A stretch of DNA of 64,000 nucleotides from an uncultured Enterobacterales bacterium (GTDB taxonomy: Bacteria; Myxococcota_A; UBA796; CAZKWG01), in NCBI GenBank assembly GCA_964615375.1, contig CAZTOW010000023.1, positions 43,866 through 107,865 on the forward strand. Reading direction: 5' to 3'. A program made the position numbers and the translations under genes. This document shows positions 427-45,237 of this stretch, piece by piece; the stretch's first letter is position 1; each line of letters opens with the position of its first letter. The notes under the pieces were generated by a model. It was not told where the DNA came from and searched no databases. It worked only from the letters and a program-made list of their open reading frames with translations.

Positions 427-477
427 CCAGCTGGGCGCAGGGGGCTCCAGAACCCCGGCGACCACCGCGACGCGAGC

Positions 478-999: not shown

Positions 1000-1084
1000 G
1001 GGGGCAGTGTAGGGGAGGGCGGGTTGGGTCGCCATTCCAAGAGGCCACCCAACAGCTTCTCCCACCCGGAGAAAGAAGGTCGAA

Positions 1085-1208
1085 CCGCCAAGGAGCCAAG
1101 GACGCCAAGGGTCCGAGAACCCACGTTCTGTCTGAGCGCGGCGCCGAGCCCTCTCCTCGCCCCAACCTCTCTCCGCGTTGCCCCTTGGCGCCCTTGGCCC
1201 CTTGGCGG
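1085..1208. repeat. Long inverted repeat: two 27-nt arms, each made of three CCAAGG-containing 9-mers, with a 70-nt spacer
   Basis: 1085-1111 CCGCCAAGGAGCCAAGGACGCCAAGGG is the reverse complement of 1182-1208 CCCTTGGCGCCCTTGGCCCCTTGGCGG, with 25/27 matches counted by hand. The right arm ends 1 nt from the stop codon of the minus-strand gene ending at 1210. Confidence 0.8.
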
Positions 1209-1209
1209 T

Positions 1210-3114: not shown

Positions 3115-3210
3115 AGGTAACGCCGATCTCGTCGGCGCGGGCGCGCGCTGAGGTCAAGATGCTGGCGATTCCACGCGCTATAGTGCTCCTGTCCCCCATC
3201 GGAGCTCACC

Positions 3211-25020: not shown

Positions 25021-25051
25021 GCGGACCTCCGGCCCGATATCGTATACCTGT

Positions 25052-28618: not shown

Positions 28619-29404
28619 TCAGCCGCCCAGCGCGCTCGCGCTGTCGTTGGCCGTGGCGGCGGAGCGGATCCAGCGCTGGAGCGTGTCTGCGTCCGCGGCC
28701 TCGAGGCGCGCGTCCTGCTCGGCCGAGAGGGCGAGGCCCCGCGCCTCGAGCACCGCGCGCAGGGAGCCGCGCAGGGACTCCACCTGACCCTCCTGCCGAC
28801 CCTCCTGCTTGACCTCGTCCAGGCTCTCGTAGCCGTGGCGCGCCAGGAGGTTGGCCAGCGCGGCCTCGCGCGCGAGCTCCCGGTCGAAGAGCGCGTCCAC
28901 CAGCACCGGACGCCGCAGGATCCCTGGCGCGCGAATCTGCTGTCCGGGCAGGTACATGGTGGCGGTCCCGTCCTGGCGCCACACCTCCACGCGCCGCGGC
29001 CCCACCAGGCGCACCACCCAGACCTCCAGCGTGCCGGCCTCCAGGAATTCCTGGACCTTGACCATCAGGTCCTTCTCATCCTGGCCGGTGTCCACCACCT
29101 CCAGGGCCAGCTTGGGCGCGCCCTGGACCCACCCCGGCCGGCTGGGGACGTTGCCCACGGCCACGTCCGGCGCGCGCAGCATGTCCTTGCGCGACGTGTA
29201 GCCCACGTCCATCCCGTACTCGTCCACGTCCGGGTCCGATCCCAGCACCATCGAGGAGGCGCTGGACGAGCCCGCGTGACCGCCGCCCGAGGGGGCGCAG
29301 TAGATCGGGTGCCCGTCGGAGAGCTCGTAACGGCTCCCTGGGTGAATCTCCTGGGCCTCGAGCCCGCCCGGCGCGCGCATCGTCTCGTAGGAGTAGCGAT
29401 TCAT
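28619..29404 (-). CDS. Uma2-family (DUF820, PD-(D/E)xK) endonuclease fused to a DUF4351-like C-terminal tail
   Basis: YELSDGHPI, APDVAV, PKLALEVVD...E, EVWVV core typical of Uma2. The extra C-terminal region KQEGRQEGQVESLRGSLRAVLEARG... resembles the tail of the Rpn protein at 13110-14090. Confidence 0.8.
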   Translation of the reverse strand: MNRYSYETMRAPGGLEAQEIHPGSRYELSDGHPIYCAPSGGGHAGSSSASSMVLGSDPDVDEYGMDVGYTSRKDMLRAPDVAVGNVPSRPGWVQGAPKLALEVVDTGQDEKDLMVKVQEFLEAGTLEVWVVRLVGPRRVEVWRQDGTATMYLPGQQIRAPGILRRPVLVDALFDRELAREAALANLLARHGYESLDEVKQEGRQEGQVESLRGSLRAVLEARGLALSAEQDARLEAADADTLQRWIRSAATANDSASALGG

Positions 29405-29509
29405 GTGAGGAGCATATCCTCGTGGCCCGGGTTTGAGAAGCCTAGAACCTCAGGACCTTACCCATAATTTCCCGGCGTTCCTCCATGAAGGCGTGTTTCA
29501 TGAAAAAGC

Positions 29510-29539
29510 AAGGCCCCCGGCGATCAATCCGGGGGCCTT
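29510..29539 (-). terminator. Rho-independent terminator for the minus-strand gene ending at 29564
   Basis: Perfect 11-bp stem AAGGCCCCCGG / CCGGGGGCCTT with an 8-nt loop. On the minus strand it is followed by GCTTTTTCA. Confidence 0.65.
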
Positions 29540-29563
29540 AAGTAGATCGACGTTACACCTGTG

Positions 29564-30055
29564 TTACTGGCGGCTGCCCGCCCCGACGACACGGAAGGTC
29601 GGGCGCCGCGCCGCCCGGTAGCCGCCCGCCTCCCCCACGGGGGCCCGCTCGGCGAGCGCCAGCGTCTCCAGGGCCACGCGCGCGGCGTCCCCGCCCGCCT
29701 CGACGGGCAGCGCCGAGGAGAGCACGGACGCCACCGACGCCACCACGAGGTCGATCACGTCCTCGGCGGGCTGGTCGGGGTGGGAGCGGAGCGCCCCGCC
29801 GATGGCGATCCCGCACAGCAGCGCGACGCGGGTCGCTACCGCCTCGCGCGCCGCCCAGGCGTCGGACACGCTGTCGGAGTAGTCGGCGTAGATCCGTCGC
29901 TGCTCGGAGGTCAGGGTGTTCTCCAAGGCGATGCGGGCGCGCTGCTGGGCGCGCTGGAAGGGGGCCATCTCCTCGCCCCCCACCATCTCGATCATGGCCT
30001 CATAGGCGGTGTGGTCGGTCCAGTCGTCGATCCGCCACTTGATCAGGGTCTTCAT
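29564..30055 (-). CDS. Hypothetical protein
   Basis: ATG 30055 (MKTLIKWRIDDW...) preceded by GGAGA. Coding-like composition; no recognisable family. Confidence 0.5.
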   Translation of the reverse strand: MKTLIKWRIDDWTDHTAYEAMIEMVGGEEMAPFQRAQQRARIALENTLTSEQRRIYADYSDSVSDAWAAREAVATRVALLCGIAIGGALRSHPDQPAEDVIDLVVASVASVLSSALPVEAGGDAARVALETLALAERAPVGEAGGYRAARRPTFRVVGAGSRQ

Positions 30056-30259
30056 GACGCACGTCTCCATGCCCGCCGGGGTTGACCGGCAGTCGGGCAA
30101 GCGGGCGAAAGCCAGCCTACCGGGCCAGCAGTCAGGAGACGGCGTAAATCCGTCGTTTGACACGGTGGAACCTGCGCGCATAGATGGGCGCAGGCCCGGG
30201 GGTGTAGTTCACTCCTACCTCCTGGGCTTAGGCCCGTCGGGGAGTTCGCACCTCCACGG

Positions 30260-31810
30260 CGGGCCGTTCTCGTTGTGCCTCCAGGGGTAGCACAGGGGGG
30301 CGACCCCTGTCCACCCCTCGCGGTCAGAGCGCTTCCTCGCCCCTACGATCTCCCCGTTCCCGCCGTCGTCCGGCGCGCCTCAACATCTCCCCCATCCCCC
30401 GGAAGACCCGATAGCGGGGATCGGGCGGGAGCTTCCCGAACGCCGACACCAGCGCGAGCACACGCTCCATGAGATCCCCGCCGGTCTCGCGGATCGTGGC
30501 CAGGAACGCATACAGGATGGTGGCGAGCAGGGCGATCCGCCGCACGCCGCGCAGGGTCAGCGCCCGCACGTCTTCGAGGTCCACGCCCCAGCCCCTGGAG
30601 TCCTTCATGGCCCGGGTCGCCTCCTCGCACTTCCAGCGCCGCCCGTAGGCGCGCGCCGCCTCCAGGATGGCCGCCTTCCCCTCCAGGTGCTCCGACGCCA
30701 GCAGGGCGAGGGGCTGCTTCCCGAAGCCCCAGACCACGATCAGGGTGCGCGCCTTCCCCTTCGGGCTCGGGTGGTTCTTCTGGTTGGAGAGGTAGACCTT
30801 CCGGGAGCCGACTTCGAGCGTGATCGTCTTCTTCCCCGCGCCCTTCGCCCGCTTCCGGCCCGCCTTGATCTCCATCTTGAAGCGGGGGATCACTTCGAGC
30901 GCGGCGTCCTCCACGCTCAGGCATCGGCCGTCCGCGGTGAAGACCTCGCGCTGGTTCTTCACCGCGTACTGAAGGCGGCAGATCCAGCGCAGGTTCAGGG
31001 CGTCGAGTCCGTCGAGGTAGCGGGTGTTGTCGAAGCCACGATCCGAGGTCCACCACGCGCGCGGCCCGATGGAGGGGGCGGCGATTCGGATCTGCTCCAG
31101 GAAGACGGAGGTCTGAGAGGACTTCGCGATCTCCTCGTAGCTGAACGGATGCAGGAGGACGGGGATCTGAAGCTCGCCGAGGTCGGCTTCGAGCTGCACC
31201 ACGGGGTAGCCGAGCCCGGTCTCCCCGTCCGAGCCGTTCCAGCACCGCGAGACCCCCTCCATGCCCCGCTCGGGGTCCGGGTTCGCCCAGGGCTTGGCCA
31301 GGTCGGTGTAGTCCACCGCCACCACCACGCCCTCGCCGTCGTCGCGGCGCGCGTGACGGGCCACCACGTCCAGGTGACGGGCCAGCAGGGCCGCGTCGTC
31401 CAGGCGATCCGAGTTCAGCCCCCGGCTCAGTCGCTTCTCCGTGTGGATGAGGCGACGGGGATCGCCGTCCTCGGCCTCCTCGTCCAGCGCGCGCCCGATC
31501 TCGGAGAGCATCGGCGACTTCGAGATCGCCATGCCCCGGAGCATATCGGCGATCCAGCGCTGGTTCGGGACGTACTGATCCTGTCCGACCTCCGCGCAGA
31601 AGTCGGCCAGGGCTCGCGTGATCGCAGCCACGGCGCACCCGTTTGCAGCCGGCGGGAGCGCGCGCTAAGCTGGGTGTGCGTGCCAAGCGCACCCGAGCCC
31701 ACGACCTCGCCGGGTTGGGGTTCTGGTTCCAGCGCCCGCGGTGTTCTCAGCACCGCGGGCGTTGTCGTTTCTGACCCCTTGATCTTAGCCGGTCGAACAC
31801 GAGAAATCAC
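30260..31810 (-). mobile_element. IS4-family insertion sequence (ends approximate and not confidently defined)
   Basis: Single DDE transposase ORF. An 11-bp perfect hairpin at 31733-31761 lies upstream of the transposase start. Only weak candidate terminal repeats were found (TTCTCGT at 30267-30273 and its complement near 31799-31805). Followed by a lower-GC islet. Confidence 0.45.
30324..31631 (-). CDS. IS4-family DDE transposase
   Basis: 435 aa, GTG start. Exact Y-(2)-R-(3)-E-(6)-K signature in AYGRRWKCEEATRAMK. Upstream DDE-like motifs VVAVDYTD and WWTSDRGF. Confidence 0.85.
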   Translation of the reverse strand: MAAITRALADFCAEVGQDQYVPNQRWIADMLRGMAISKSPMLSEIGRALDEEAEDGDPRRLIHTEKRLSRGLNSDRLDDAALLARHLDVVARHARRDDGEGVVVAVDYTDLAKPWANPDPERGMEGVSRCWNGSDGETGLGYPVVQLEADLGELQIPVLLHPFSYEEIAKSSQTSVFLEQIRIAAPSIGPRAWWTSDRGFDNTRYLDGLDALNLRWICRLQYAVKNQREVFTADGRCLSVEDAALEVIPRFKMEIKAGRKRAKGAGKKTITLEVGSRKVYLSNQKNHPSPKGKARTLIVVWGFGKQPLALLASEHLEGKAAILEAARAYGRRWKCEEATRAMKDSRGWGVDLEDVRALTLRGVRRIALLATILYAFLATIRETGGDLMERVLALVSAFGKLPPDPRYRVFRGMGEMLRRAGRRRERGDRRGEEAL

Positions 31811-32084
31811 GCTGCGAAGGCTTGATTTGGCTCGAATGCGGACAGAAGTTGTCCGCGCCGTTGGGCCCGCTGGCAGCCTCCGGGACGGGTGTCTCGGGCC
31901 GGGGGCCGCGAGACGGGTGTGCGGGCTCCGGCGCGTCGTGGCGGGGACGCAGCGCGGCGGGATGGGCATCGGCGATCAGGGATCGCCGGGGGTGGTACCG
32001 GGGCGCGGTGGCGGATCTGACTGGATCTACGCCGGTATCGAATTAGTGGCTGCTGCACTACACTCACAATGGAAGTACGCCATC

Positions 32085-32531
32085 ATGGACTACAAGAGCA
32101 CCCGAACAGCCGTAAAGGTCGATGACATTGCCGTTCTCGCGTCTTGGCTCATGGCCGCACGTCCCTCGATATCGTTCGACGACTGCGTGTTCGAGGCGCT
32201 GCACACTATCATCGACCTGAACCGACAGCCCCAGGCCCCGACATGGCGTTCTCCAGTGGTTCTGGAACTGGCCCGAACCCTGCTGCTCCGGGAGCCAAAC
32301 ACCCCGCTGCTGGATCACTTTAAGGAGGCCATTCGGCTCAAGACCGAGGGGTTGACTGCCACTCTCATGAGGGGAGGGAAGATCTCGGGCGCCGAAGGGG
32401 CGATCTACTATGTCGTTCGCAATGTGCATCGCGGGGAGGCAGACGTGACGCAGGTCATCGGAGATATCGAGCTATATGCCGAGCTTAACGACGAGAATTC
32501 CAGCTCAGTCGATCCGGTGGAGGGACGCTGA
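32085..32531 (+). CDS. Hypothetical protein in the lower-GC islet
   Basis: ATG 32085 (MDYKSTRTAVKVDD...), 148 aa, balanced amino-acid composition unlike the shadow ORFs. No family recognised. Confidence 0.5.
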   Translation: MDYKSTRTAVKVDDIAVLASWLMAARPSISFDDCVFEALHTIIDLNRQPQAPTWRSPVVLELARTLLLREPNTPLLDHFKEAIRLKTEGLTATLMRGGKISGAEGAIYYVVRNVHRGEADVTQVIGDIELYAELNDENSSSVDPVEGR

Positions 32532-32732
32532 AAGCTGCCCAAGGGGACCTGCTCCTTCCGCCAGAGAGATCGCTTCATATGCCAGCATGATCGACAGGGG
32601 TAAAGGAAGATTGGCCTGGAGCGCCCGTTGAACCTCCTCGGAAAGCTGAACGTAGAGATCGAACATAGCGCGCGCTGGGCGCTGGGTGCCGGTCTCGGTC
32701 GCCTCGGTGACGGTCTCGCGCAGCTCGGACAT
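32505..32732 (-). CDS. Small hypothetical protein (75 aa), convergent with and overlapping the previous gene by 27 nt
   Basis: ATG 32732 (MSELRETVTEATETG...). Helical-looking sequence; weak support. Confidence 0.3.
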   Translation of the reverse strand: MSELRETVTEATETGTQRPARAMFDLYVQLSEEVQRALQANLPLPLSIMLAYEAISLAEGAGPLGQLSASLHRID

Positions 32733-32865
32733 GGACACCTCCGGGTCGGGTGATACCCGCTCGACTGGTGCCATGTGGTGAGCCCTGTGCGACGGCTGAC
32801 GGATCGCGATAGAGGCCGCCATCAGGGACCGTGCTACTCGATGAACAAGCAGAGGGAGACCCACG

Positions 32866-33327
32866 ATGTCGATGAAACACCCGCTACTGAGCATCATCAG
32901 CCTGTTATCGGTCTTCGTACTCGCCTGTGCTGGCGACGACGCCGGCAAGGGCGAGTCAGGGGACACTGGAGAGGAGAATCAGGAAGCCGACTGGCTCGTT
33001 GCGGATCTCGCTCTGGTGCCAAATAGTCTGAACTATGCGGCCGTAACTGGCGTCGTGACCCTTCAGGGTGACCTTGCGGGCGCAGGGACGATGGCTGAGG
33101 TTCGCTACTACCAGGACGACTACACCACGCTCATCACCGACGCCTCTGAGATGATCGGCAGCGATCTCGAAGAGATCGGCACGACACAGGCGTTTGAGCT
33201 CACCCACTACACGGTCTACGTGCTGCCCGCTATCGGGGGATACGCCTATGTCTGCGCCAGCTTCCGCGCAGATGACTCGAACTATGAGGACTGGACGGAG
33301 GTAGGTTGCCTTGAAGGCGTTGAGTGA
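32866..33327 (+). CDS. Hypothetical lipoprotein (lower-GC islet)
   Basis: Signal plus lipobox MSMKHPLLSIISLLSVFVLAC, then an acidic linker GDDAGKGESGDTGEE. No family recognised. Confidence 0.6.
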   Translation: MSMKHPLLSIISLLSVFVLACAGDDAGKGESGDTGEENQEADWLVADLALVPNSLNYAAVTGVVTLQGDLAGAGTMAEVRYYQDDYTTLITDASEMIGSDLEEIGTTQAFELTHYTVYVLPAIGGYAYVCASFRADDSNYEDWTEVGCLEGVE

Positions 33328-34868: not shown

Positions 34869-36929
34869 ATGCCGGGTTTCGGATGGCTGCACCTCACCGA
34901 CCTGCACGCCCCCGGCGTCGGCGGCTTCCGCACGCTCTGGCCGAACGTGGAGGAGCAGCTCTACGAGGACCTGGGGCGCATGCACGACCGCTCGGGGCCC
35001 TGGGATCTGGTGCTGTTCACCGGTGATCTGACGCAGCGCGGCTCGGCCTCCGAGTTCGCCGCCCTCGACGAGCTGCTCGGCGCCCTCTGGGAGCACCTGC
35101 GCGCGCTCGGCTCCGACCCCGCCCTCTTCGCCGTCCCCGGCAACCACGACCTGGCCCGCCCCGACCCGCGCCGCCCCGAGGTGCGCCTGCTGGCCCGCTG
35201 GGAGGACAACCCGGACGTGCAGCGCGAGCTCTGGGCCGACCCGCTGAGCCCCTACCGGCGCCTGCTGGAGGAGAGCTTCTCGGCGTACTCCAGCTGGTCC
35301 TCGGCCCCGAAGATCCGGGCGCCGGGCGAGCTGCTGAGCGGGATGCTGCCCGGGGACCGCAGCGCCGTGCTGGAGAAGGAGGGCGCCCGCCTCGGGCTGC
35401 TGGGGCTGAACACAGCCTTCCTCCAGCTCGGGGACGGGGCCTGGCAGGGGAGGCTGGCCCTGGACACGGCCCAGTTTCACGCCGCCACGGGCGGGGACGG
35501 GGCGCGCTGGGCCCGGGGCTGCGACGCCGCCCTCCTGCTCACCCACCACGGCCCCCACTGGCTGGACAAGCTCAGCAACGAAGCGCTCAACGGCGAGATC
35601 GCGCCCCCCGGTCGCTTCCTGGCCCACCTCTACGGCCACATGCACGAGCCCGCCGCCCAGCAGCTCGCCGTGGGCGGCGCCCAGCCCTGGCGGCGCTGGC
35701 AGGGGGCGAGCCTGTTCGGGCTGGAGGGTTGGGGCGCCAGCCAGGACCGCAGCCACGGATACAGCGCTGCCCGGCTGGAGATCGACGGCCAGGGCCAGGG
35801 GCGGCTGCGCCTCTTCCCCCGCGCCGCGGTCAAGCACCAGGCCGGCTTCTGGCACCTCGGCGCCGACCGCAGCTACGTGCTCGAGGACGACGGCGGCACC
35901 ACCCCCGAGACCGTCCCCCTGCGCCGCCGCCGCCCCCGGGTGGGCGGGCTCCAGCCCGGCCAGGACATCATCACGCTCCCCATCCCCGAGCCCCCGCTCC
36001 CGCCGGAGAGCTGCGAGGCCCTGCTGGCCCTGGCCGACGGGGTCCACGACGAGGACGTCGAGCGGGTGAGCAAGATGATGGGCCGCGGCGAGTACGTGGC
36101 CCTCCTGGCCCCCGCCGGCTTCCGCCTCCCGCTGGCCATGCGCGCCCTGGCCGAGCGCCTGGCGAAGCGCAAGGACATGGTCGCCTTCCGCGTGACGCCG
36201 CTCACCCTCGCCGAGACCATGGACGACTGGCTGGACCACCTCCTGCGCGAGCTCGGCGCCCGGGTGGGCGGCCTCCAGGTCAGCGCGCGCGGCAACCGCC
36301 TGCTGGCCCTGCTGTACGCGCTCCAGGACGCGGCCCGGGCGCTCACCGATCGCGGCGCGCGCCTGATGGTGCTGGTCGATCCGGTGGAGAGCTTCGCGGG
36401 CGAGCACCGCGAGCGCGTCGTGCGCCTGCTGCAGGTGCTGGCCCAGCTCTCCGAGGAGCGCACCAACGATCCCAGCCTGGAGAGCGTGGGCGTGGCCATG
36501 TCCGGGGGCGAGGAGCTCCAGCGCATCCTGGCCGGGCGGGTGGTGGTCAGCGCGGACCTGTCCCCGGTGCGGGCCAGCATGCAGACCGTGCTGGGCCCGG
36601 TGCTGCCGCCCCAGGGCGCCGACCCCGCCGTCCGCGCCGTGGTCGAGGCCGTGGGCGGCCACCCCGAGCTGGTGCGCTGGGCGGCCAACCGCGGCGGGCG
36701 CTTCCTGGGTCGGCCCGAGGACGAGCTCCCCCTCCTGGCGCGCCAGGTCGAGCGCTTCCGCGCCGGCCTCTTCCGCGACCAGCTCCAGCGCCTCCTGGCG
36801 GGCGAGACCGCCGCCTGGAAGGACCCCGATCCCGCCCTCCGCTGGAGCGGCTGGCTGCGCCTGGACACCCCCGGCTGGCTGGGCCCCGTGCTGGAGGAGC
36901 TCGCGCGAAGGGCGGCGGGCCCCGGATGA
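34869..36929 (+). CDS. Cytoplasmic calcineurin-like metallophosphoesterase fused to a degenerate (P-loop-dead) NTPase-like domain
   Basis: No signal peptide. MPE motifs in canonical order: HLTDLH (34890-34907), GDLTQRG, GNHD (35139-35150), LLTHHGP, YGHMH. The C-terminal ~330 aa have an NTPase-like layout, but the Walker A position reads LLAPAGFRLP (36093-36131) and the Walker B position MVLVDPVE (36360-36395). Stop overlaps the next start (ATGA). Confidence 0.85.
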   Translation: MPGFGWLHLTDLHAPGVGGFRTLWPNVEEQLYEDLGRMHDRSGPWDLVLFTGDLTQRGSASEFAALDELLGALWEHLRALGSDPALFAVPGNHDLARPDPRRPEVRLLARWEDNPDVQRELWADPLSPYRRLLEESFSAYSSWSSAPKIRAPGELLSGMLPGDRSAVLEKEGARLGLLGLNTAFLQLGDGAWQGRLALDTAQFHAATGGDGARWARGCDAALLLTHHGPHWLDKLSNEALNGEIAPPGRFLAHLYGHMHEPAAQQLAVGGAQPWRRWQGASLFGLEGWGASQDRSHGYSAARLEIDGQGQGRLRLFPRAAVKHQAGFWHLGADRSYVLEDDGGTTPETVPLRRRRPRVGGLQPGQDIITLPIPEPPLPPESCEALLALADGVHDEDVERVSKMMGRGEYVALLAPAGFRLPLAMRALAERLAKRKDMVAFRVTPLTLAETMDDWLDHLLRELGARVGGLQVSARGNRLLALLYALQDAARALTDRGARLMVLVDPVESFAGEHRERVVRLLQVLAQLSEERTNDPSLESVGVAMSGGEELQRILAGRVVVSADLSPVRASMQTVLGPVLPPQGADPAVRAVVEAVGGHPELVRWAANRGGRFLGRPEDELPLLARQVERFRAGLFRDQLQRLLAGETAAWKDPDPALRWSGWLRLDTPGWLGPVLEELARRAAGPG

Positions 36930-39900
36930 GCGCGCGCCTCCCCCTCCTCGCGCTGCTCCTCGGCCTCACCGTGCAGGCCGCGAAGGACGTGCGCGAGGTG
37001 CTCCGCGCCACCGCCCTGCGCCTCCCCTCCGACCCCGAGGGCCAGGACCCCTGGGCCGGCGGCCGGGTGGAGGTCTGTTGGAGCGCGCCCGGCGCGGATC
37101 CCACCCTGGCCGTGCGCGTCTACGCGGGCTCGCTGGACGAGCCGATGAGCGCCTGGGAGCCGGTCGCCGGCCCGCTCCTGGGGCGGAGCTGCTGGCGGGG
37201 CCCCTGGGAGCCCGACCGCGCCTGGGCCGTGGCGCCCGTCCGAGACGGGGTGGAGGGCGAGCGGGCGCTGGCCCGGGGCACGGCGCTGCGGGCGCGGTCC
37301 CGGGTCCCTGTCGAGGCGCGCCTGGAGGGCGATCAGGTCACGGCCATCGCCGAGGGCGGGGGACGGCTCTGGTTCGCCACCGACGGCGGCGGGCTCAGCG
37401 CCGCGCCGCTCTCCGGCGACCTCGCCCCCTGGGAGGCGCCCTGGACCACCTGGCGACAGGCCGACGGGCCCGGCGCCGACCGGCTGGGGGCTGTGCTCTA
37501 CGAGGCCGCCGCCTCCCGCGTGTGGGTGGGGGCGCGCGGGCGCGTGGCGGCGCTCAACCTCCAGGACGGGACCTGGCGGGCCTACGGCGTCCGCGACGGC
37601 CTGCCCGAGGGCCTGATCACCACCCTCCTGGTGCCCGAGCTCGGATCCGTGGTCGCCGCGGCCGAGGGCGGTCAGATCGTCCAGTTCGATCCTCGCTCCG
37701 AGCGCTGGGTGACCCTGGCGGAACTCGAGACGCAGGATCCTGGCGCCCGCGTGCTGGGCGCGGACGGGGACGGTCGCTTCTGGATCTCGACGTCCGAGGG
37801 CCTCCGTTCATTCAACCCGCGCGACGATCGCTGGGCGCGGCTCGCCTGCCCCGGGCGCGTCACGGCCATGCTGCACGACGCCGCGGGCCAGCTCTGGTTC
37901 GGCACCGAGGACGCCGGGCTGATGGTGGTCCGCGAGGGGCGCTGCGAGCCCGTCTCGGCGCCCCCGGACGGCGCCTGGCCCGCCATCCGCGCCCTCCTGG
38001 ACGGGGAGCGCGGCCCGCTGGTCGGCGCCGATCGCGGCCTGCTCCGCTGGGTCAGCGCCGAGGGCCGCTGGGAGAGCGGGGCCTCCGATCCCTCCCTCGC
38101 CGGCCTGGCGGGTCTGCCGATCACCGGCCTCCACCGCGACGAGCGCGGCGCGCTGTGGGTGGCGGTCCGGCACGAGGGCCTGCGGCGCGTGGACCCCGAC
38201 GGGGCGGTCAGCGCGGCCCGGCCGGCGAGCGTGCTGCGGGCGGGCCCGGTGGGCGTCGTCATCACCACCAACGGCCAGGTCTGGTTCGGCTCGGAGGGTG
38301 GGATCAGCCGGCTCACCCTGGGGACGGGGGCGTGGAGCTGGTGGCGCTCGCCCAGCGTCGGCGTCACCGGGGGCGTCAGCGCGCTGGCCGTGGGCGGGGC
38401 GGGCGAGCTCCAGACCCTCTGGGCGGGGGGCCAGGGCGCCGTGGCCCGCTTCCTCCCCACCATGGAGCGCTGGGACAGCTTCGCCCTCCCGCGCCCCGAG
38501 TCCCGGGTCCTCTCCATCCTCGTGGACGAGCCCGCCCTCTGGGTGGGCACCGACGCGGGGCTGCTGCGCTTCGATCTGGCCAGCGGCGCCTGGGACGAGC
38601 CCTTCCGCGGCGGCTGGCTGGAGCGCGCGCGCGTCCAGGCCCTCCTGCGGGACAGCGCCGGGGGCCTCTGGGTCGGCACCCCCCAGGGCGCGCTGCGGCT
38701 CGAGGCCAGCGAGGGCCTGGAGCTCCTGCCCGCGGGCGGGGCCCTCAGCGGCCTGGACGTGGCGGCCATCGAGCAGGACGGCAGCGGGGCGCTGTGGTTC
38801 TCGTCCACCCGGGGCGATCTGGTCCAGCTCCTCCCCGCCAGCGGGGACACGCGGCGCGTGCAGCTCGACCCGGGCGACGCGATCACGGGGATGGCGCTGA
38901 ATTACGACCGGCTGTGGTTCGCCTCGGAGCGGGGCCTCTCGGTGCGGGAGAGCGCGCGCTTCGACGGGGGCCTCCAGCAGCGGGTCGAGGCGCGCGGCAC
39001 CCGCGGGGTGGCGGTGGACAGCGGCGGGCGGGTCTGGCTGGCCACGGCGCGCGGCGCGCTGCGCTGGGACCCGGAGACGGGGATCTCCCGCCGCTATCCG
39101 GCGGCCCTCGGCGAGCCCGAGGACGAGGCGCGGGTGCGGGCCTCGGTCACCGCGGGGGGCGGGCGGGTCTGGCTGGGCACCGAGGCGGGCAGCGTGCTGC
39201 TGGTGGACGCCCAGGGCGTCGTCCGCGACCGCCTGGACGGCGAAGACGGGCTCCCCGGCGCGCCGGTGCGGGCCCTCTACTGGGACGAGGTCGGTGAGCT
39301 GTGGATCGGGACGGAGGGGGGCGGGCTCGTGCGCGTGAAGGTCGCCGCGAGCGGCGTGGGCGCGCCTGAGGCCATGCAGATCTACCGGGCGGCCGACGGG
39401 CTGGGGAGCGATCAGGTCCTGGCCCTGACCAGCCGGGTGTCGGGCGAGCTGAGCGTGCTCACCGACCGCGGCGCCGTCCTCTTCGAGAAGGCCAGCGGCT
39501 TCCGGCCCCTCAGCCTGCCCAGCGGGCTGCGGGGCGCGCTGCGCAGCTTCGCCTGGCGCGGGCTCGACGAGCTGTGGGTGGGCACGGGCGAGGCCGTCGG
39601 CTGGCGCGTCCAGCCCTCGGGGCAGGCGCCGATCCGGGTGCGGGAGCCCGCCCCGGGCGCGAGCTGGGCCACGGGCGTCAACGTCTTCTTCAAGGACCAG
39701 GACGGGAACCTCTGGCTCGGGCTGGAGGGCGGCGGCCTCGGCCGGAAGGGGGAGCAGGGCGTGGAGCCCGTCACGGTGGACGGCGCGGGGCCCGGCCTCG
39801 AGGTGCGCGCCATCCGCGAGGCCGCCGGGCGCATCTGGCTGGCGACGAACCAGGGCGCCTTCTGGCGTCCGGTGGGGAGCCCGCAGGGCTACGAGCAGAC

Positions 39901-42799
39901 CAACGCCCCCCTGGACACCCAGGGGCTGCCCGAGCGGCGCTGGACGCGCGCGGACGCCCTGGACCTGGGCCCCGGGACGCAGGAGATCTGGGACTTGAGC
40001 CCGGACGCCTCCGAGGGGATGTGGTTCGCCACCGACGCGGGCGCCCTCCGCCTGGATCTCGGCGTCGGGACGGCTCTCCGCGTGGACCCCGCCGCCCCGC
40101 CCCAGGCGGGCCCCGCCCTGCTCTCCGGGGAGCCCGTGGGTGTCGCCCTGCGCGGCGTCGCCGCCTTCGTGCGCGGGGACCGGCTGCTGGGCGAGCCCTC
40201 CGCCCCCGGGGCCGTGCGCGCGGCGGTCTCGGCCTGCGGCGAGTCCGATCTGCTCCTGGACAACGGCGAGATCCTGCGGGTGCTGGGCCAGGGCCTCTCC
40301 CGCGAGGTCGTCCACGCTCCGCTGGCGACGCCCCGCGCCCTGGCCGTGCTCTGTTCGGAGGGCGCGCTCTCGGGCGCCTCCAGCCTCTGCGTAGGCGGGG
40401 ACGGGCTCTGGTGCCGGGGGATGGCGGGCCAGTGGACGGCGCTCTCTCTGCCCCTCCAGGATCCAGGCGCCGCGATCACCGCGCTCTACGCCCACGGCGC
40501 GGAGCTCTGGGCGGGTCACGAGGACGGGGAGGTCTGCCGCGCGGCGACCGGCGCGGCCTCCAGCGTCGCCTGCGTCACGCCCACCCCCTCCCTGGGCCCC
40601 GTGCGCGCCCTGGTGGAGGACGGGGCGGGCGGGGTCTGGGTGGGCGGCGACCGCGGCCTCGGGCGCCTGGTCCTGGGAGCGACGGGCGAGCTGACCGTGG
40701 TGGAGCCCCCGCGCCCGCTGCGCGCCCAGGGCGACGGCGAGCTCCAGTCGGGCATGAGCCTGGACCTCGCCGGCGCGGCGGTGAGCGGGCTCGACTTCGA
40801 CCGCGCCACCGGGACCCTCTGGGTCACCATGCCCGATCGCGGCGTCGTGCGCGTCGGCCAGCCCGCGCGCCGCTCCTTCTTCCGCAAGGCCGTCTCCCCC
40901 GTCGAGCGCACCGAGCCCGCCCCAAGCCTGGGTGGATCGGAGCGCCTCGAGGGGGTGGTCGTGGACGCCGCCTCCCGGGTCTGGGTGAGCGAGGGCGGCG
41001 GCCTCTACGAGCTCGACGGGCGCGCGCCGCCCACGTCCACGATGTGGGTGTTGACCCTGGCGATCGGGGGCGGGCTCACGGTCTTCGCGCTGGTCTGGGG
41101 CAGCATCCACTTCAGCCCGGTGGTGCGCGGGTGGCGCCGCGATCCCAGCTCGGTGGAGCGGGTTGGGCTAGATAATCTAGCTCCAGCCCTGCGCGTGCTC
41201 CGCCTCTACGCCCCCGGCTTTGCCCGGGCGTCCATCGGCTTCACGCGGCTGGGCGCGCTGGAGCGGCTGGCGCGGGTGTGGGGAGGCGCGCCCGAGCGGG
41301 TGCTCCCCGCGGCGGCCGAGGTGCTGGGTCTGGAGCCCGAGGGCGAGATCAAGGAGGCGTCTCTGCAGGTTCAGCTCTCGCTGGGGCTGGCGCTCAAGCG
41401 CAGGGACACGCTGCTGGTGCTGCTGCCGCAGGAGGGCGACCCCGACGCCTTCCTGCGCGAGCGCCTGGAGGCCCGCGCCTTCCACGAGCTCACCCCGGCC
41501 CTGGCCATCTGGCCCGGGGACGAGCCGCCCTTCCTGCACGGCGCCGTCTCGCTCACCGAGGCCGATCTGCGCGCGGTGGGCTGGTCGCGGCAGCCGAAGC
41601 GGGCGCTGGCCGGGCTGGTCTGGCAGCGCTCGGACATGCAGGGGCTCTCGCCCTACCAGGCGCACGGGGCCGTGCAGGACCCCCGGATGTTCTTCGGGCG
41701 GGACGCCGTCCTGCGCGAGCTCACCGCCGCCGGGCGTCGCCGGGCGCTCCTGGTCATCGGGCCCCGCCGCGTGGGCAAGACCAGCGTGCTGTTGCGTGCC
41801 GCCGCCGAGCTCGAGCGCCGCGGCGCCCGCACCGTCTACGTCACCCTGCGGGCCACCGTCGCCGGGCCCTACGATCTGGCCGTCGCGCTGGCCCGCGCCG
41901 CCCGCCTGCCCCTGCCGGATCCCCCGTCGGAGGAGAGCTCGGGGGCGGAGGCGGCGGGCCTGGGCGCCTGGATCCGGGCCAACCTGAGCGGGGCCAACCT
42001 CCTGCTGGACGAGGCCGACGCCTTTCTGCGCAATGACCGCGCGCGGGGCAGCCAGACCTCGGAGGAGCTGCGCTCGCTCATCCAGGAGGGCGTCTGCGCG
42101 CTGGCCCTGGCCGGCTACGGCACGCTCTACCGCGCCGCGCTCTCCCAGGCGGAGACCGCCTACAACCTGGGCGAGCCGCTCTTCCTCGGCAGCCTGGAGC
42201 GCGAGGCCGCCCTGCGTCTCGCCACCGAGCCCATGGAGCGGGTGGGCATCCAGTGGGCGGACCCGGAGCTGGCCGAGCGCCTGGTGGCGACGCTGGGCAT
42301 GTTGCCCCACCTGATTCAGGAGGCCTGCAGGCGCCTGCTGCTGCGCGTGCGCGGCTTCCGCGAGCCCGTGTTGAACTCCGCCGATCTGTACGCGGTGCTG
42401 GGCGACTGGCGTCCCGAGGGCGAGCCGTCCAGCCTGCGCGAGTTGCTTGTCATCAACGTGGAGACCAACCTGAAGGGCCCGGCCCAGGCCGCCGTCTGGC
42501 TGCTGGCGGACGAGCTGAGCGTCGGGTTTTCGCTCTCCGAGCTGGGTGACGCGCTGCACGGCGCGGGCTTCGTGGATCTGGACACCGAGCGTGTGTTGGA
42601 GATCGGGCTCGCGTTGCAGGTAGCCGGCGTGTGTCAGCGCGGGGCGGACCACCACCGCTTCCTGGTGCCCCTGCTGGGCGAGGCGGTGAGCCACCTGGAC
42701 GTCGGCTACCGGGTGGCCGGGCTGCGGGACGCCTGGAAGGCGATGGAGCCTGGGGCCCGGCGGGGCTTCAAGTTCTGGGGCGGGGAGGGGGAGGGGTGA
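36926..42799 (+). CDS. 1,957-aa membrane sensor: signal peptide, extracytoplasmic multi-beta-propeller (two-component-regulator-propeller-type blades), one TM helix, cytoplasmic AAA+/STAND-type P-loop NTPase
   Basis: ATG 36926. Signal peptide MSARLPLLALLLGLTVQAA. More than 20 copies of G-x-(L/V/I)-W-(F/V/I)-(G/A)-(T/S)-x-x-G-(L/A), e.g. GRLWFATDGGGL, GQLWFGTEDAGL, GELWIGTEGGGL. TM helix MWVLTLAIGGGLTVFALVWGSIHF (41042-41113). FFGRD...LLVIGPRRVGKTS Walker A (41759-41785). NLLLDEAD Walker B (41996-42019). Confidence 0.85.
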   Translation: MSARLPLLALLLGLTVQAAKDVREVLRATALRLPSDPEGQDPWAGGRVEVCWSAPGADPTLAVRVYAGSLDEPMSAWEPVAGPLLGRSCWRGPWEPDRAWAVAPVRDGVEGERALARGTALRARSRVPVEARLEGDQVTAIAEGGGRLWFATDGGGLSAAPLSGDLAPWEAPWTTWRQADGPGADRLGAVLYEAAASRVWVGARGRVAALNLQDGTWRAYGVRDGLPEGLITTLLVPELGSVVAAAEGGQIVQFDPRSERWVTLAELETQDPGARVLGADGDGRFWISTSEGLRSFNPRDDRWARLACPGRVTAMLHDAAGQLWFGTEDAGLMVVREGRCEPVSAPPDGAWPAIRALLDGERGPLVGADRGLLRWVSAEGRWESGASDPSLAGLAGLPITGLHRDERGALWVAVRHEGLRRVDPDGAVSAARPASVLRAGPVGVVITTNGQVWFGSEGGISRLTLGTGAWSWWRSPSVGVTGGVSALAVGGAGELQTLWAGGQGAVARFLPTMERWDSFALPRPESRVLSILVDEPALWVGTDAGLLRFDLASGAWDEPFRGGWLERARVQALLRDSAGGLWVGTPQGALRLEASEGLELLPAGGALSGLDVAAIEQDGSGALWFSSTRGDLVQLLPASGDTRRVQLDPGDAITGMALNYDRLWFASERGLSVRESARFDGGLQQRVEARGTRGVAVDSGGRVWLATARGALRWDPETGISRRYPAALGEPEDEARVRASVTAGGGRVWLGTEAGSVLLVDAQGVVRDRLDGEDGLPGAPVRALYWDEVGELWIGTEGGGLVRVKVAASGVGAPEAMQIYRAADGLGSDQVLALTSRVSGELSVLTDRGAVLFEKASGFRPLSLPSGLRGALRSFAWRGLDELWVGTGEAVGWRVQPSGQAPIRVREPAPGASWATGVNVFFKDQDGNLWLGLEGGGLGRKGEQGVEPVTVDGAGPGLEVRAIREAAGRIWLATNQGAFWRPVGSPQGYEQTNAPLDTQGLPERRWTRADALDLGPGTQEIWDLSPDASEGMWFATDAGALRLDLGVGTALRVDPAAPPQAGPALLSGEPVGVALRGVAAFVRGDRLLGEPSAPGAVRAAVSACGESDLLLDNGEILRVLGQGLSREVVHAPLATPRALAVLCSEGALSGASSLCVGGDGLWCRGMAGQWTALSLPLQDPGAAITALYAHGAELWAGHEDGEVCRAATGAASSVACVTPTPSLGPVRALVEDGAGGVWVGGDRGLGRLVLGATGELTVVEPPRPLRAQGDGELQSGMSLDLAGAAVSGLDFDRATGTLWVTMPDRGVVRVGQPARRSFFRKAVSPVERTEPAPSLGGSERLEGVVVDAASRVWVSEGGGLYELDGRAPPTSTMWVLTLAIGGGLTVFALVWGSIHFSPVVRGWRRDPSSVERVGLDNLAPALRVLRLYAPGFARASIGFTRLGALERLARVWGGAPERVLPAAAEVLGLEPEGEIKEASLQVQLSLGLALKRRDTLLVLLPQEGDPDAFLRERLEARAFHELTPALAIWPGDEPPFLHGAVSLTEADLRAVGWSRQPKRALAGLVWQRSDMQGLSPYQAHGAVQDPRMFFGRDAVLRELTAAGRRRALLVIGPRRVGKTSVLLRAAAELERRGARTVYVTLRATVAGPYDLAVALARAARLPLPDPPSEESSGAEAAGLGAWIRANLSGANLLLDEADAFLRNDRARGSQTSEELRSLIQEGVCALALAGYGTLYRAALSQAETAYNLGEPLFLGSLEREAALRLATEPMERVGIQWADPELAERLVATLGMLPHLIQEACRRLLLRVRGFREPVLNSADLYAVLGDWRPEGEPSSLRELLVINVETNLKGPAQAAVWLLADELSVGFSLSELGDALHGAGFVDLDTERVLEIGLALQVAGVCQRGADHHRFLVPLLGEAVSHLDVGYRVAGLRDAWKAMEPGARRGFKFWGGEGEG

Positions 42800-42999
42800 T
42801 GTCGCCTGTCCCAGGCGGGGCCATCGTTGGCCAGGCGGGTCTGGCTGCCGGTGTCGTGTTGGCGGGGATCCGGCCCTGGCTGAGGGACACCGCGTTTCGG
42901 GGCCGCGTCCAATACGTCGGCGCCACGGACGGCGAGGACGCAGAGCGCTGCGACGGGTACTGGCTGTTCACGGCCTCCTGGGCTGGAGAGCTCCCATGA
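42799..42999 (+). pseudogene. 5'-truncated relic of a cassette lipoprotein gene (could be expressed as a 66-aa chimeric ORF)
   Basis: ATG 42799 overlaps the stop of the sensor gene (TGATG). The last ~40 codons (WLRDTAFRGRVQYVGATDGEDAERCDGYWLFTASWAGELP) are near-identical to the 3' end of the gene at 43115-43636. The N-terminal 25 aa are unrelated and hydrophobic. Confidence 0.5.
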
Positions 43000-43125
43000 T
43001 CGGCGCGGCTGTGCGGAGGGTCAGCCTCTCTGCGGCGGGGGCGGTGGTGCGCACCCACGTGAGCCGAGGGCCCTTCATTCTCCTCTCGCCGACCGAGCTC
43101 TCGTGGGTGATACTATGACCTGCCA
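42876..43125 (+). repeat. Direct repeat copy 1 (~250 bp): cassette gene 3' end + intergenic spacer + next start codon region
   Basis: Aligns base-for-base with 43513-43762 (offset 637 nt). I counted only about 6 mismatches before similarity decays after the ATG, and roughly 140 bp are identical. Confidence 0.9.
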
Positions 43126-43636
43126 GATCCGTTGCCCTGGCGGGAAGCCGAATGCCCGGCGCCAATCCCCATCGCTGATAGGATGCATGGTATGGATGAG
43201 TCTTTCAGGGTGTTCTAGTGAACTGGTCCCTCAGAATGGTGGCTATCTGTTTGATGGTGTTGCATATGTGCAGGACTGCGCGGGTGGTGATGATACAGGA
43301 GGTTGGCCGCTGCTAGAGTACGACCTTCAGCATGCGTCGAGCGCGCGGATCCGAGATGTTCGTGGGCGAGACTTTCAGTTTGCCACTATCATCTCGTCTC
43401 GTGTAGTCAACGTGCTCACCCTCGACTGTAGCATCACAGACGCCGACGCCCACACCTTCGAATGCTCCCCCTACACCGACGGGCAGGGGAACTCCTGGTC
43501 CGCGACCGGCGTCTGGCTGAGCGACACCGTGTTTCGGGGCCGCGTCCAATACGTCGGCGCCACGGACGGCGAGGACGCAGAGCGCTGCGACGGGTACTGG
43601 CTGTTCACGGCCTCCTGGGCTGGAGAGCTCCCATGA
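43115..43636 (+). CDS. Small Cys-containing lipoprotein, cassette paralogue 1
   Basis: Lipobox MSLSGC (ATG 43115; GTG 43103 also possible). Visibly lower-GC body. Conserved family motifs GGY.F, DC, LDC, AHTFEC, GVWLSDT, GYWLF. Confidence 0.7.
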   Translation: MTCQIRCPGGKPNARRQSPSLIGCMVWMSLSGCSSELVPQNGGYLFDGVAYVQDCAGGDDTGGWPLLEYDLQHASSARIRDVRGRDFQFATIISSRVVNVLTLDCSITDADAHTFECSPYTDGQGNSWSATGVWLSDTVFRGRVQYVGATDGEDAERCDGYWLFTASWAGELP

Positions 43637-43762
43637 TCGGCGCGGCTGTGCGGAGGGTCAGCCTCTCTGCAGCGGGGGCGGTGGTGCGCACCTACGTGAG
43701 CCGAGGGCCTTTCATTCTCCTCTCGCCGACCGAGCTCTCGTGGGTGATCCTATGACATGCCT
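43513..43762 (+). repeat. Direct repeat copy 2 (~250 bp)
   Basis: See copy 1 at 42876-43125. Confidence 0.9.
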
Positions 43763-44276
43763 GACCAGTTCTCTCAGGATTCGATGGAATGCCCGGCGCT
43801 TGCCCCTCCTGCTGGTTTCGTGCCTGATGCTGCCTGACTTGTTCGGGTGTTCCGATGAATGGACGCCTCTGGAGGGAGGGTACTGGTTCGACGACGTCAC
43901 GTACGTACCGGACTGCGCGGCCGCTGACGATACGGGTGGATGGCCGCTGACGAAGTACAGTAATCTAGAGGGGGGGGGATTGGGGATTGATGACGTTCAC
44001 GAGGCAGCCTTTCATCTTACAATGTCTGCCCTTTACACTTCTTGGTTCAACACCCTTTCTATGGATTGTCACCTCACAGATACAGACGCCCACACCTTCG
44101 AATGCTCCACCTACGCCGACAGTCAAGGGAATTCCTGGACCTCGAGCGGCGTCTGGCTCAGCGACACCAATTTGCGTGGCCGCAATGAGTATGTTGGCGT
44201 CACAGACACCGATGACGCGGATCCCTGCAAAGGTTACTGGCTGTTTTCGGCTTACTGGGTTGGTCCGCCCCTATGA
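43752..44276 (+). CDS. Small Cys-containing lipoprotein, cassette paralogue 2
   Basis: Signal plus lipobox RRLPLLLVSCLMLPDLFGC. Shares GGYWF, DC, MDC, DAHTFEC, GNSW, GVWLSDT, GYWLF with paralogue 1, roughly half the residues by eye. Lower-GC body. Confidence 0.7.
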   Translation: MTCLTSSLRIRWNARRLPLLLVSCLMLPDLFGCSDEWTPLEGGYWFDDVTYVPDCAAADDTGGWPLTKYSNLEGGGLGIDDVHEAAFHLTMSALYTSWFNTLSMDCHLTDTDAHTFECSTYADSQGNSWTSSGVWLSDTNLRGRNEYVGVTDTDDADPCKGYWLFSAYWVGPPL

Positions 44277-44348
44277 TCGGCGACCGCCTGCCGCGACCGA
44301 CGGGATTCGCCCTGTCCCTCCAACCCTACACGACACACGGAGAGCCCC

Positions 44349-44705
44349 ATGGCCACACAGTCCCGCCGTATCCTGGACCGTCAGACGCTCGTCACCGGCG
44401 ACGCGATGGATCTCACCGAGGCGACGGACCTCGCGGAGTACAGCACGCTGGAGATCGTGATCACGGTGCACACGGCGGACACGCCCGAGGCGGGCGCGAG
44501 CGCCGCGGAGCTGGTGGTGCGGCACGCGCCCGTGGCAGAGGAGGACGGCTGGCTGGACTTCGAGACCGCCGTGACCGTGGATCTGAGCGTGGCGGGGAAG
44601 ACCTGGCGTCACATCTCGTCGTTCACGCGCTTCCTCGGGTGGTCGGTCTCGGGGAGCCTGGCGTCCTCGGCCGTGGTGACGCTCGACGTCGTGGCGAAGG
44701 ACTGA
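44349..44705 (+). CDS. Small acidic cytoplasmic hypothetical protein (118 aa) embedded in the lipoprotein array
   Basis: ATG 44349 preceded by GGAGAG. No signal peptide. Beta-strand-like pattern (TLEIVITVHT, ELVVRHAP, AVTVDLSV, AVVTLDVV). Stop is 4 nt before the next start. Confidence 0.55.
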   Translation: MATQSRRILDRQTLVTGDAMDLTEATDLAEYSTLEIVITVHTADTPEAGASAAELVVRHAPVAEEDGWLDFETAVTVDLSVAGKTWRHISSFTRFLGWSVSGSLASSAVVTLDVVAKD

Positions 44706-44709
44706 GCCG

Positions 44710-45198
44710 ATGGCGCCGACCCCGGGTCGCGTTCATCGGGTCCTGATCGGGCACACGCCCCTGGTCCTCTCCCTGCTCACGAGCTGTGGATTCCGCCCGG
44801 AGGAGGGCACCTACGCCGTCACCGACGTGATCGGTCGGCTGGAGTGCTGGCAGACCGGGGAGACGGTCACGACGATCGAGGACGAGGGTGGCGAGCTGGT
44901 CGTGAGCGGCGTGGACCGGGAGCTCTTCAACCTCCACCTCGGGAGCTGCCCTGGCGGGATGTGCACCACGCTCGACGTCTCGTGCGTGCTGGGCGAGGTC
45001 GGCGAGCTCGCGTTCGCATGCGATCCGATCATCGACGCCGACGATCAGATGTGGGGCGTGAGCGGGGTGTGGCTCTCGACGACGGCCTTGCAGGCGCAGC
45101 TCACCTACGACTCCTGCTCGGAGGGGCGGTGGTACGGGGACTGCGCGTGCCTGGGGGACTGGTTCTTCGACGCCGCGCTGGCGGGGGTGGAGGGCTGA
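44710..45198 (+). CDS. Small Cys-rich lipoprotein, distant cassette paralogue 3
   Basis: Lipobox LVLSLLTSC. Retains GTY...V, FACD, MWGVSGVWLSTT and GDWFFDA equivalents of the family motifs, with extra cysteines. High GC like the host. Confidence 0.65.
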   Translation: MAPTPGRVHRVLIGHTPLVLSLLTSCGFRPEEGTYAVTDVIGRLECWQTGETVTTIEDEGGELVVSGVDRELFNLHLGSCPGGMCTTLDVSCVLGEVGELAFACDPIIDADDQMWGVSGVWLSTTALQAQLTYDSCSEGRWYGDCACLGDWFFDAALAGVEG

Positions 45199-45213: not shown

Positions 45214-45237
45214 CCCCTCGGCCCCTGCGCCGAGGGG
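45214..45237. terminator. GC-rich hairpin between convergent genes (9-bp stem CCCCTCGGC / GCCGAGGGG, 6-nt loop)
   Basis: Read directly. It lies between the stop at 45198 (+) and the stop at 45247 (-). No U-tract. Confidence 0.45.

Follow-up and report, generated by a model that had tools for sequence, protein, structure and literature searches.

What are the small lipoprotein genes that follow genes A and B in the 64-kb stretch of DNA analyzed here (the window), and do they belong to the sensor operon at whose 3' end they lie? An earlier, sequence-only reading of this DNA likened them to a cassette array. This likeness is supported by conserved junctions, divergent gene bodies, a truncated stub, differences in copy number and order between relatives, and one clear mosaic gene. 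We are confident that the locus holds a tandem array, variable between strains, of small lipoproteins from a family that is very rare and restricted by lineage, predicted to be 8-9-stranded meander β-barrels, and it is highly likely that the array evolves by homologous recombination at a junction repeat of 258 nt.

Three full paralogues, P1, P2 and P3 (Table 1), lie where the sequence-only reading had placed them, and their homology is clear for P1 and P2 (50% identity, E 7e-60) and for P1 and P3 (30% identity over 74 aa, E 1e-9). A search of all six frames with a hidden Markov model (HMM) of the family found no additional copy in the window. The three lipoboxes, which had been described as lacking lysine at +2, do have other residues there (S, S and G), and the remaining features of signal peptides, a basic n-region and a hydrophobic h-region, were recognized by eye in all three. 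With a slash before the lipobox cysteine, the signal peptides read ...RR...LIGCMVWMSLSG/C in P1, ...RR LPLLLVSCLML PDLFG/C in P2 and ...R..R VLIGHTPLVLSLLTS/C in P3. The lipobox pattern used was [LVI][ASTVI][GAS]C; the F at -2 in P2 is atypical. Of the shared scaffold motifs proposed earlier, G-x-Y, F-x-C, GVWLSxT and C-x-G-x-W-x-F were all found, but the motif given as 'DC' reads 'EC' in P3. Four cysteines other than the lipid-bearing one are invariant in P1, P2, P3 and two relatives, and probably form two disulfides in the exported protein. From these sequence features the family is predicted to consist of small exported lipoproteins, lipidated and of ~140 mature residues each.

P1 and P2 had been called AT-richer than their surroundings, and this was confirmed: their GC contents are 0.61 and 0.56, and their GC contents at third codon positions (GC3) are 0.68 and 0.65, against a GC3 of 0.93-0.97 in the neighbouring genes. 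P3 has a GC3 of 0.93, and host genes in the window range from 0.85 to 0.98. The gaps between the genes, earlier described as short, are not all empty. The one between P2 and P3 holds an overlooked open reading frame (ORF) of 118 codons, ORF118, which gene callers also predicted in each of four independent assemblies (L005-L008). ORF118 has no family, PDB or plasmid match, and hhalign found it unrelated to the lipoproteins. The hairpin 3' to P3 has a perfect 9-bp stem (z = -2.96), in agreement with the earlier description; the terminator scan did not call it because it lacks a T-run.

P1 and P2 are joined to one another, and P1 to the left edge of the array, by a repeat, R, whose two copies are 96% identical (10 mismatches) and have a period of 637 nt. 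In order, the repeat consists of the 3'-terminal 124 nt of a cassette coding sequence, a spacer of 115 nt and the 19 nt that open the coding sequence after it. The 3' end of P2 itself is the least homogenised, with 75% identity to repeat R. The sequence-only reading described the 66-codon ORF between gene B and P1 as a truncated relic of the family, and this holds for its last 41 codons, which do derive from a cassette. Its first 77 nt are unrelated: their local alignment score against the cassettes is 9, where the mean for shuffled sequences is 10, and cassette homology of the first 25 codons was rejected on this ground. Since only the stretch of 41 codons matches the cassettes, and lies inside the 258-nt repeat, the 'relic' is the left copy of repeat R. 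It matches the family HMM only at profile positions 117-156 and is unable to encode a complete barrel. The TGATG overlap between the stop of gene B and this ORF exists as described; it is probably incidental.

Each 115-nt spacer holds one small ORF (sORF) that had been overlooked, with the peptide MIGAAVRRVSLSAAGAVVRT[H/Y]VSRGPFILLSPTELSWVIL. The sORF is kept in two related contigs, L010 (6064-6186) and L004 (302-424). Codon position 3 takes 9 of the 14 variable columns (p = 0.017), and in sORF 1 the composition follows the order GC3 > GC1 > GC2. The same MIGD start occurs after the last cassette, where it runs into the ORF118 region. By its overlaps the sORF would be translationally coupled to the flanking cassettes. 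As RNA, the spacer matched no Rfam family, and its folding is unremarkable (z = -0.38). The mismatches between the two repeat copies (G/C, C/T, G/A, C/T, C/T, A/C, C/A, A/T, T/C and C/A) are not specific to adenine and the coding part is nearly identical, so hypermutation by a diversity-generating retroelement was rejected for this pair of repeats.

Table 1. Features of the lipoprotein array, its neighbours and its relatives. Positions are those of the window unless a contig is named.
Feature	Position	Strand	Remarks
Gene A, calcineurin-like phosphoesterase	34869-36929		
Gene B	36926-42799		Reg_prop propeller repeats; STAND-type NTPase domain near C-terminus (nSTAND1, AAA_22, AAA_16)
Lead-in of 66-codon ORF	42799-42875	+	Not cassette-derived; best read as intergenic DNA 3' of gene B
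3' stub of cassette, 41 codons	42876-42999	+	Begins in GVWLS motif; 2 mismatches to 3' end of P1
Junction repeat R, copy 1	42876-43133	+	258 nt
sORF 1, 40 codons	42996-43118	+	ATGA overlaps with stub stop and P1 start
P1, lipoprotein paralogue	43115-43636	+	Lipobox LSGC; body type unique to the window
Junction repeat R, copy 2	43513-43770	+	258 nt
sORF 2, 40 codons	43633-43755	+	ATGA overlaps with P1 stop and P2 start
P2, lipoprotein paralogue	43752-44276	+	Lipobox LFGC
ORF118, 118-codon gene	44349-44705	+	GC3 0.93, host-like; signal peptide not seen by eye
P3, divergent lipoprotein paralogue	44710-45198	+	Lipobox LTSC; host-like composition
Hairpin, GC-rich	45214-45237		Between convergent genes P3 and a 388-codon minus-strand gene
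CHAP-like gene and downstream leucine-rich repeat (LRR) lipoprotein gene	L010 3084-5217; L001 1199-3272	- (L010)	
Layout of window array			Stub, P1, P2, ORF118, P3
Layout of L010 and L003			Cassette a, spacer, cassette b, ORF118 remnant; in L010 remnant fused to P3-like gene, L003 ends there
Layout of L001 and L002			One cassette, then ORF118 remnant fused to P3-like gene
Layout of L004			Partial cassette of other type, then cassette b

Related arrays were found in a sister lineage (contigs L001, L003 and L010) and on one distant contig. L010 (CAZKWG010000077.1; 71% GC) comes from a metagenome-assembled genome labelled uncultured Enterobacterales, in which it is probably mis-binned; it shares 96-97% identity with two Logan contigs, L001 and L002. 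The distant contig, L011 (JAMHTB010002039.1, 3.4 kb), carries at 149-3131 three overlapping paralogues, with lipoboxes LKGC, LLGC and LGAC and without spacers or sORFs. The variation in copy number that the cassette comparison implies was indeed found, since the relatives differ in both number and order of cassettes (Table 1). Where the flanks are 96-97% identical there are two cassettes in L010 and L003 and one in L001. This single cassette is a mosaic of cassettes a and b. At informative sites, those where a and b differ, its sequence 5' of alignment nt 407 matches a at 110 sites and b at 22, and its sequence 3' of that point matches a at 0 sites and b at 22 (Fisher p = 8.6e-15, before correction for ~144 breakpoints). 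Only a few bases separate this breakpoint from the position at which repeat R of the window has its 5' edge. In the sister lineage ORF118 has internal deletions and an in-frame fusion to the P3-like gene (L010 ~6698-6955; L001 4178-4430). The ORF118 remnant also contains a microsatellite coding for PDT, in which L001 and L010 are one repeat unit apart.

At least four body types were counted. Between paralogue bodies, synonymous divergence (dS) is saturated at 1.5-2.0 and the ratio of non-synonymous to synonymous divergence (dN/dS) is 0.23-0.38; for the 3' block dS is 0.07-0.5. Because silent sites, too, differ less in the junction, these values point to homogenisation of the junction by gene conversion and not to constraint on the protein. 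Given their high dS and low dN/dS, the bodies look like old, constrained alleles rather than hypermutating ones. A cassette may also have passed between lineages. P2 has 96.9% nucleotide identity to the first cassette of L010 (L010a) and to that of L003, and the comparison with L010a gives a dS of 0.097 and a dN of 0.013, with a 72-codon body free of non-synonymous change. The adjacent P3 and its L010 counterpart stand further apart (dS 0.355, dN 0.189), and the synonymous contrast between the two pairs is significant (Fisher p = 2e-4). The greater nearness of the P2 pair suggests that P2 was exchanged between the lineages after their divergence, plausibly by recombination in the shared junctions. 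In general, recombination at the junction repeat would lead to the gain and loss of copies, to mosaic genes and swaps of whole bodies between lineages, and to a 3' stub left at the left edge of the array.

P1/P2-type cassettes have a GC3 of 0.64-0.68 in every lineage, compared with 0.94 in host genes; on L011 the paralogues have 0.68-0.78, compared with 0.90 in the ATPase gene that precedes them. By neighbour joining, P3 clusters with the final gene of the L011 array, which at 38% identity is the nearest relative that P3 has outside the lineage, and the P1/P2-type cassettes form a lineage-specific clade. On this grouping, an old array of two types may underlie a recent expansion.

A GC3 of 0.65-0.68 in a genome of GC3 0.95, together with a stub, an ORF118 that is degraded in relatives and short-read contigs that break in the repeat, might also be taken to mean that the array is decaying, horizontally acquired DNA without present function, or an artefact of assembling strain mixtures. 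We regard this as extremely unlikely. No lineage has a disrupted reading frame, cysteines and motifs have been conserved, P2 orthologues have a dN/dS of 0.13, and arrays of three genes persist in two very distant lineages. The contig breaks themselves agree with the presence of two genuine spacer copies in independent samples: the Logan contigs of the window's organism (L006-L008) begin 30 nt before the repeat mismatch at 43749, as would be expected if a k = 31 assembly graph branched there and both spacer copies were present in those samples. The position of P1 is without independent assembly support, because exact-product look-ups with three alternative starts found no record of it.

The turnover of cassettes and their exchange between lineages would also be expected of variable surface or outer-membrane lipoproteins that act without any toxin, in evasion or recognition, as phage or predator receptors or as kin-recognition cargo. 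In that case recombination between cassettes would alter the set of proteins displayed by the cell. The host bears on this. A GH15-family protein of the window (22681-25092, minus strand) has a C-terminal MYXO-CTERM-like tag, with a GC motif, a hydrophobic stretch and RRRR, and has weak NCBIfam matches to myxosortase-dependent families; from the tag, the host is probably a member of the Myxococcota. In Myxococcus xanthus, lipoproteins without lysine at +2 sort away from the inner membrane (PMC3222651), and by analogy it is plausible that the same rule applies to this host. The lipoboxes and the probable host count in favour of this reading. However, diversifying selection, which the sequence-only reading had led us to look for, left no sign in pairwise comparisons: dN/dS is 0.1-0.5 in the family overall, with no non-synonymous excess in the bodies or between the P2 orthologues. 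These estimates are pairwise, from few sequences and without resolution of single sites. Moreover, the stub is unusable as a silent donor because it contains no variable sequence, and since all copies look expressible, the layout is not that of one expression site served by silent cassettes. On balance variable surface proteins of this kind are an unlikely explanation.

Does the array belong to the operon that precedes it? In the sequence-only reading the lipoproteins looked co-transcribed with A and B and could serve as polymorphic ligands or identity tags for the periplasmic propellers of B; a role as co-sensors would be of the same kind. The stop of gene B does overlap the ATG of the stub ORF, but this ATG lies in codons that are not cassette-derived, and the left edge of the array is an incomplete stub, with 77 nt of unrelated sequence between it and B. 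Gene B itself ends intact, as a 53%-identical homologue stops at the same place (FKFWGGEGEG* and FNFWGGDD*). No terminator-like site was found by scan in the array or before 45214, and the only promoter-like hexamer pair lies inside P2. The array of relatives without A/B sits behind a divergent intergenic region, and on this ground it probably has a promoter of its own.

Three genomic contexts of the family are available. In the window the array begins 77 nt after the propeller-STAND gene B. On L011 the three-gene array begins 1 nt after an AAA ATPase gene, whose product matches AAA_22, AAA_16 and AAA_35 and has a NucS_C-like nuclease domain at its end. In the sister lineage (L001, L003 and L010) the array is divergent from a CHAP-like gene and A/B are absent; nothing besides the array region of these contigs matches the window. 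The L011 arrangement recalls that of the window, as B matches AAA_22, AAA_16 and nSTAND1, but BLASTP detected no homology between B and the L011 ATPase. The supposed linkage to A/B is not conserved in this small sample, the family occurring without them in L001, L003, L010 and L011. Conversely, the B-like genes on contigs L012-L016 have no family member alongside in the sequence available, which for L012 covers only ~230 nt downstream. We therefore consider a role of the lipoproteins as ligands of B quite improbable. Judged by these few contexts, the array seems to be no integral component of the metallophosphoesterase/propeller-STAND operon.

A word-indexed search with the C-terminus of gene B found at least one relative. 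Metagenomic homologues of its C-terminal STAND region, with 35-36% identity, occur at L016 3687-8754 and on L013-L015; these proteins have an N-terminal membrane segment and no propellers, and their genes are preceded by a TIR-like gene (as judged by eye) and a gene for an 86-residue secreted protein. The phosphoesterase domain of gene A has weak matches to anti-phage families. The evidence suggests that A/B belongs to a class of effector-plus-STAND conflict systems.

The lipoprotein family is very rare, lineage-restricted and previously without name or annotation. An exhaustive profile search of 1.84 billion (1.84e9) cluster representatives gave six matches, namely the window's own P3, the stub ORF, one for the P2 cluster and three on L011. 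In that search the family was thus found in the window's lineage, in its sister and on a single distant contig. When 5.8 billion proteins were searched with a word index, P2 had three matches and P3 none besides itself. A scan of genomes from 185,579 species, one for each, gave a single locus, that of L010. The array proteins had no match in Pfam, NCBIfam, PADLOC or PHROGs, and sequence searches of the PDB with the family gave nothing below E 0.2. Nothing was found when plasmids were searched by tblastn with P2 and ORF118, or when viral contigs were scanned with the family profile, and no mention of the accession numbers was found in the literature.

AlphaFold2 models of mature P1 (predicted local distance difference test, pLDDT, 71.7) and mature P3 (pLDDT 79.6, predicted template modelling score, pTM, 0.73) are all-β. 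Both show 8-9 long antiparallel strands in a meander barrel, with nine strands in P3, and neither contains a helix of 4 or more residues. The best PDB matches by Foldseek were lipocalins, avidins, PsbO, FABP-like proteins and designed barrels; a Foldseek search of viral models gave nothing better than generic barrels. The lipocalin signature is absent: the conserved N-terminal motif is E-G-x-Y and not G-x-W, there is no C-terminal helix, and there was no match to Pfam lipocalins. A housekeeping lipoprotein of defined fold would have undone the sequence-only reading; no known housekeeping family was matched, either by sequence or by Foldseek. On these models the family is best described as new small β-barrel lipoproteins of calycin-like topology.

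What such proteins do can be approached by analogy. We tentatively propose that they protect the envelope as binding proteins of the periplasm or outer membrane, being inhibitors of, or immunity proteins against, envelope-acting proteins made by competitors or by the cell itself. The proposal draws on the likeness to the esaG and tipC immunity arrays (see below), the export signals and the barrel fold; several divergent specificities would be kept side by side, as in those arrays. Array, recombination and protective function taken together as one statement fall somewhat short of an even chance. A number of observations weigh against it. Among the genes of the window that were scanned, none was recognized as coding for a toxin or a secretion system. 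A caveat is that the order within the array comes from one assembly, and that short-read assemblies of the same organism break inside the repeat. The Foldseek matches are weak (E 1.7e-3 to 0.05, template modelling score 0.5 or less) and uninformative on what is bound. The CHAP-like protein of the sister lineage (457 residues; CHAP-like Cys/His motif; signal peptide not seen by eye) matches CHAP at E 3.7e-4, below the Pfam cut-off; its gene is divergent from the array, has a co-oriented RNI-type LRR lipoprotein gene downstream, and occurs in one lineage only. The CHAP-like protein and the RNI-type LRR lipoprotein could themselves be a toxin-immunity pair. Against independence from gene B, the array directly follows a P-loop NTPase gene (AAA_22, AAA_16) in two of the three contexts, the window and L011, which may not be chance.

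From this last observation, with gaps of 77 nt here and 1 nt in L011, one may also imagine the lipoprotein and sORF units as partners of membrane-bound or cytoplasmic STAND/AAA NTPase conflict systems, perhaps as periplasmic baits, guarded proteins or co-sensors monitored by the propellers of B. This is a long shot; if true, it would mean a guard-type immune sensor acting across the envelope in Myxococcota, with polymorphism arising from an arms race with invaders or competitors.

Further upstream, on the far side of a TolC-like gene and A/B, the window contains genes for a Uma2-family endonuclease (28619-29449) and an IS701/IS4-like DDE transposase (30324-31664), both on the minus strand. A small lipoprotein gene at 32866-33327 has an atypically low GC3 of 0.72; hhalign found it unrelated to the array family. 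The stretch 28619-33327 may be an accessory island. No tRNA was found in the window.

What is new at this locus is a narrow, unannotated family of predicted disulfide-bonded β-barrel lipoproteins; the process of recombination is itself already known. Homology-block recombination of the kind described for immunity and lipoprotein arrays in Firmicutes appears also to act in a very GC-rich, probably myxobacterial genome, and is unusually visible here, as the composition of the cassettes still looks foreign (GC3 0.65 compared with 0.95). For annotation, it should be noted that the 66-codon 'gene' at the end of the sensor operon is a repeat stub, and that the array is no guide to the ligand of the sensor. 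Were the protective role confirmed, the array would point to an unrecognized envelope-targeting antagonism in these bacteria.

Several known systems resemble the array in part. Silent-cassette antigenic variation of the pilS or vls type was rejected, as the sole partial copy has only the conserved 3' block and the full copies have starts and lipoboxes. Orphans of Rhs and contact-dependent inhibition (CDI) systems are toxin C-terminal fragments, each with an immunity gene, that lie downstream of a full-length toxin. The sequence-only reading compared the locus to them, and they do share with it a junction that is conserved, cassettes that diverge and, at the edge of the array, a truncated copy. 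The analogy fails in that every unit, including the stub, belongs to one lipoprotein family: the stub is part of the same lipoprotein gene, where such orphans would have a toxin C-terminus with its immunity gene behind it, and searches of A, B and the array genes revealed no toxin domain. Among the calycins, Blc and MliC are lipoproteins. Like the bacterial lipocalin Blc, the avidins and the lysozyme inhibitors MliC/PliC, the array proteins have a predicted up-and-down barrel of 8-9 strands and ~140 residues; they differ in having no sequence match to these proteins, no C-terminal helix in the models and no G-x-W motif. With the polymorphic lipoprotein toxin SitA and the cargo of myxobacterial outer-membrane exchange they have in common a lipoprotein signal without lysine at +2 and strain polymorphism (PMC5562445, PMC3325183). 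Here, however, neither a toxin domain nor partners like sitB or sitI were recognized.

The products of the Staphylococcus aureus lpl cluster are Gram-positive surface lipoproteins. The copy number of these tandem genes, on the νSaα island, differs from strain to strain by way of recombination in a conserved block of ~130 nt, in the brief account in PMC9484751, and tandem lipoprotein paralogues that vary in copy number by recombination at a conserved block are what we find here. The block is central in lpl, whereas here it comprises the 3' end and spacer, and the two families are unrelated. The closest parallel may be drawn with the type VII secretion system immunity arrays esaG of S. aureus and tipC of streptococci, in which recombination at blocks of 3' end and intergenic sequence produces deletions, expansions and mosaics (Garrett et al. 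2022, PMC9484751). The present array differs from these in phylum and in protein family, in the lack of a linked toxin or secretion system recognized among the window genes scanned, and in its 40-codon spacer sORF and the strongly atypical GC3 of its cassettes. In each case, however, the paralogues are tandem and non-identical, and the block of homology consists of the gene's 3' end together with the intergenic region downstream of it. A predicted lipoprotein signal peptide is shared with TipC (PMC9484751), and mosaic genes and changes in copy number between close strains, as known from esaG and tipC, are found here as well.

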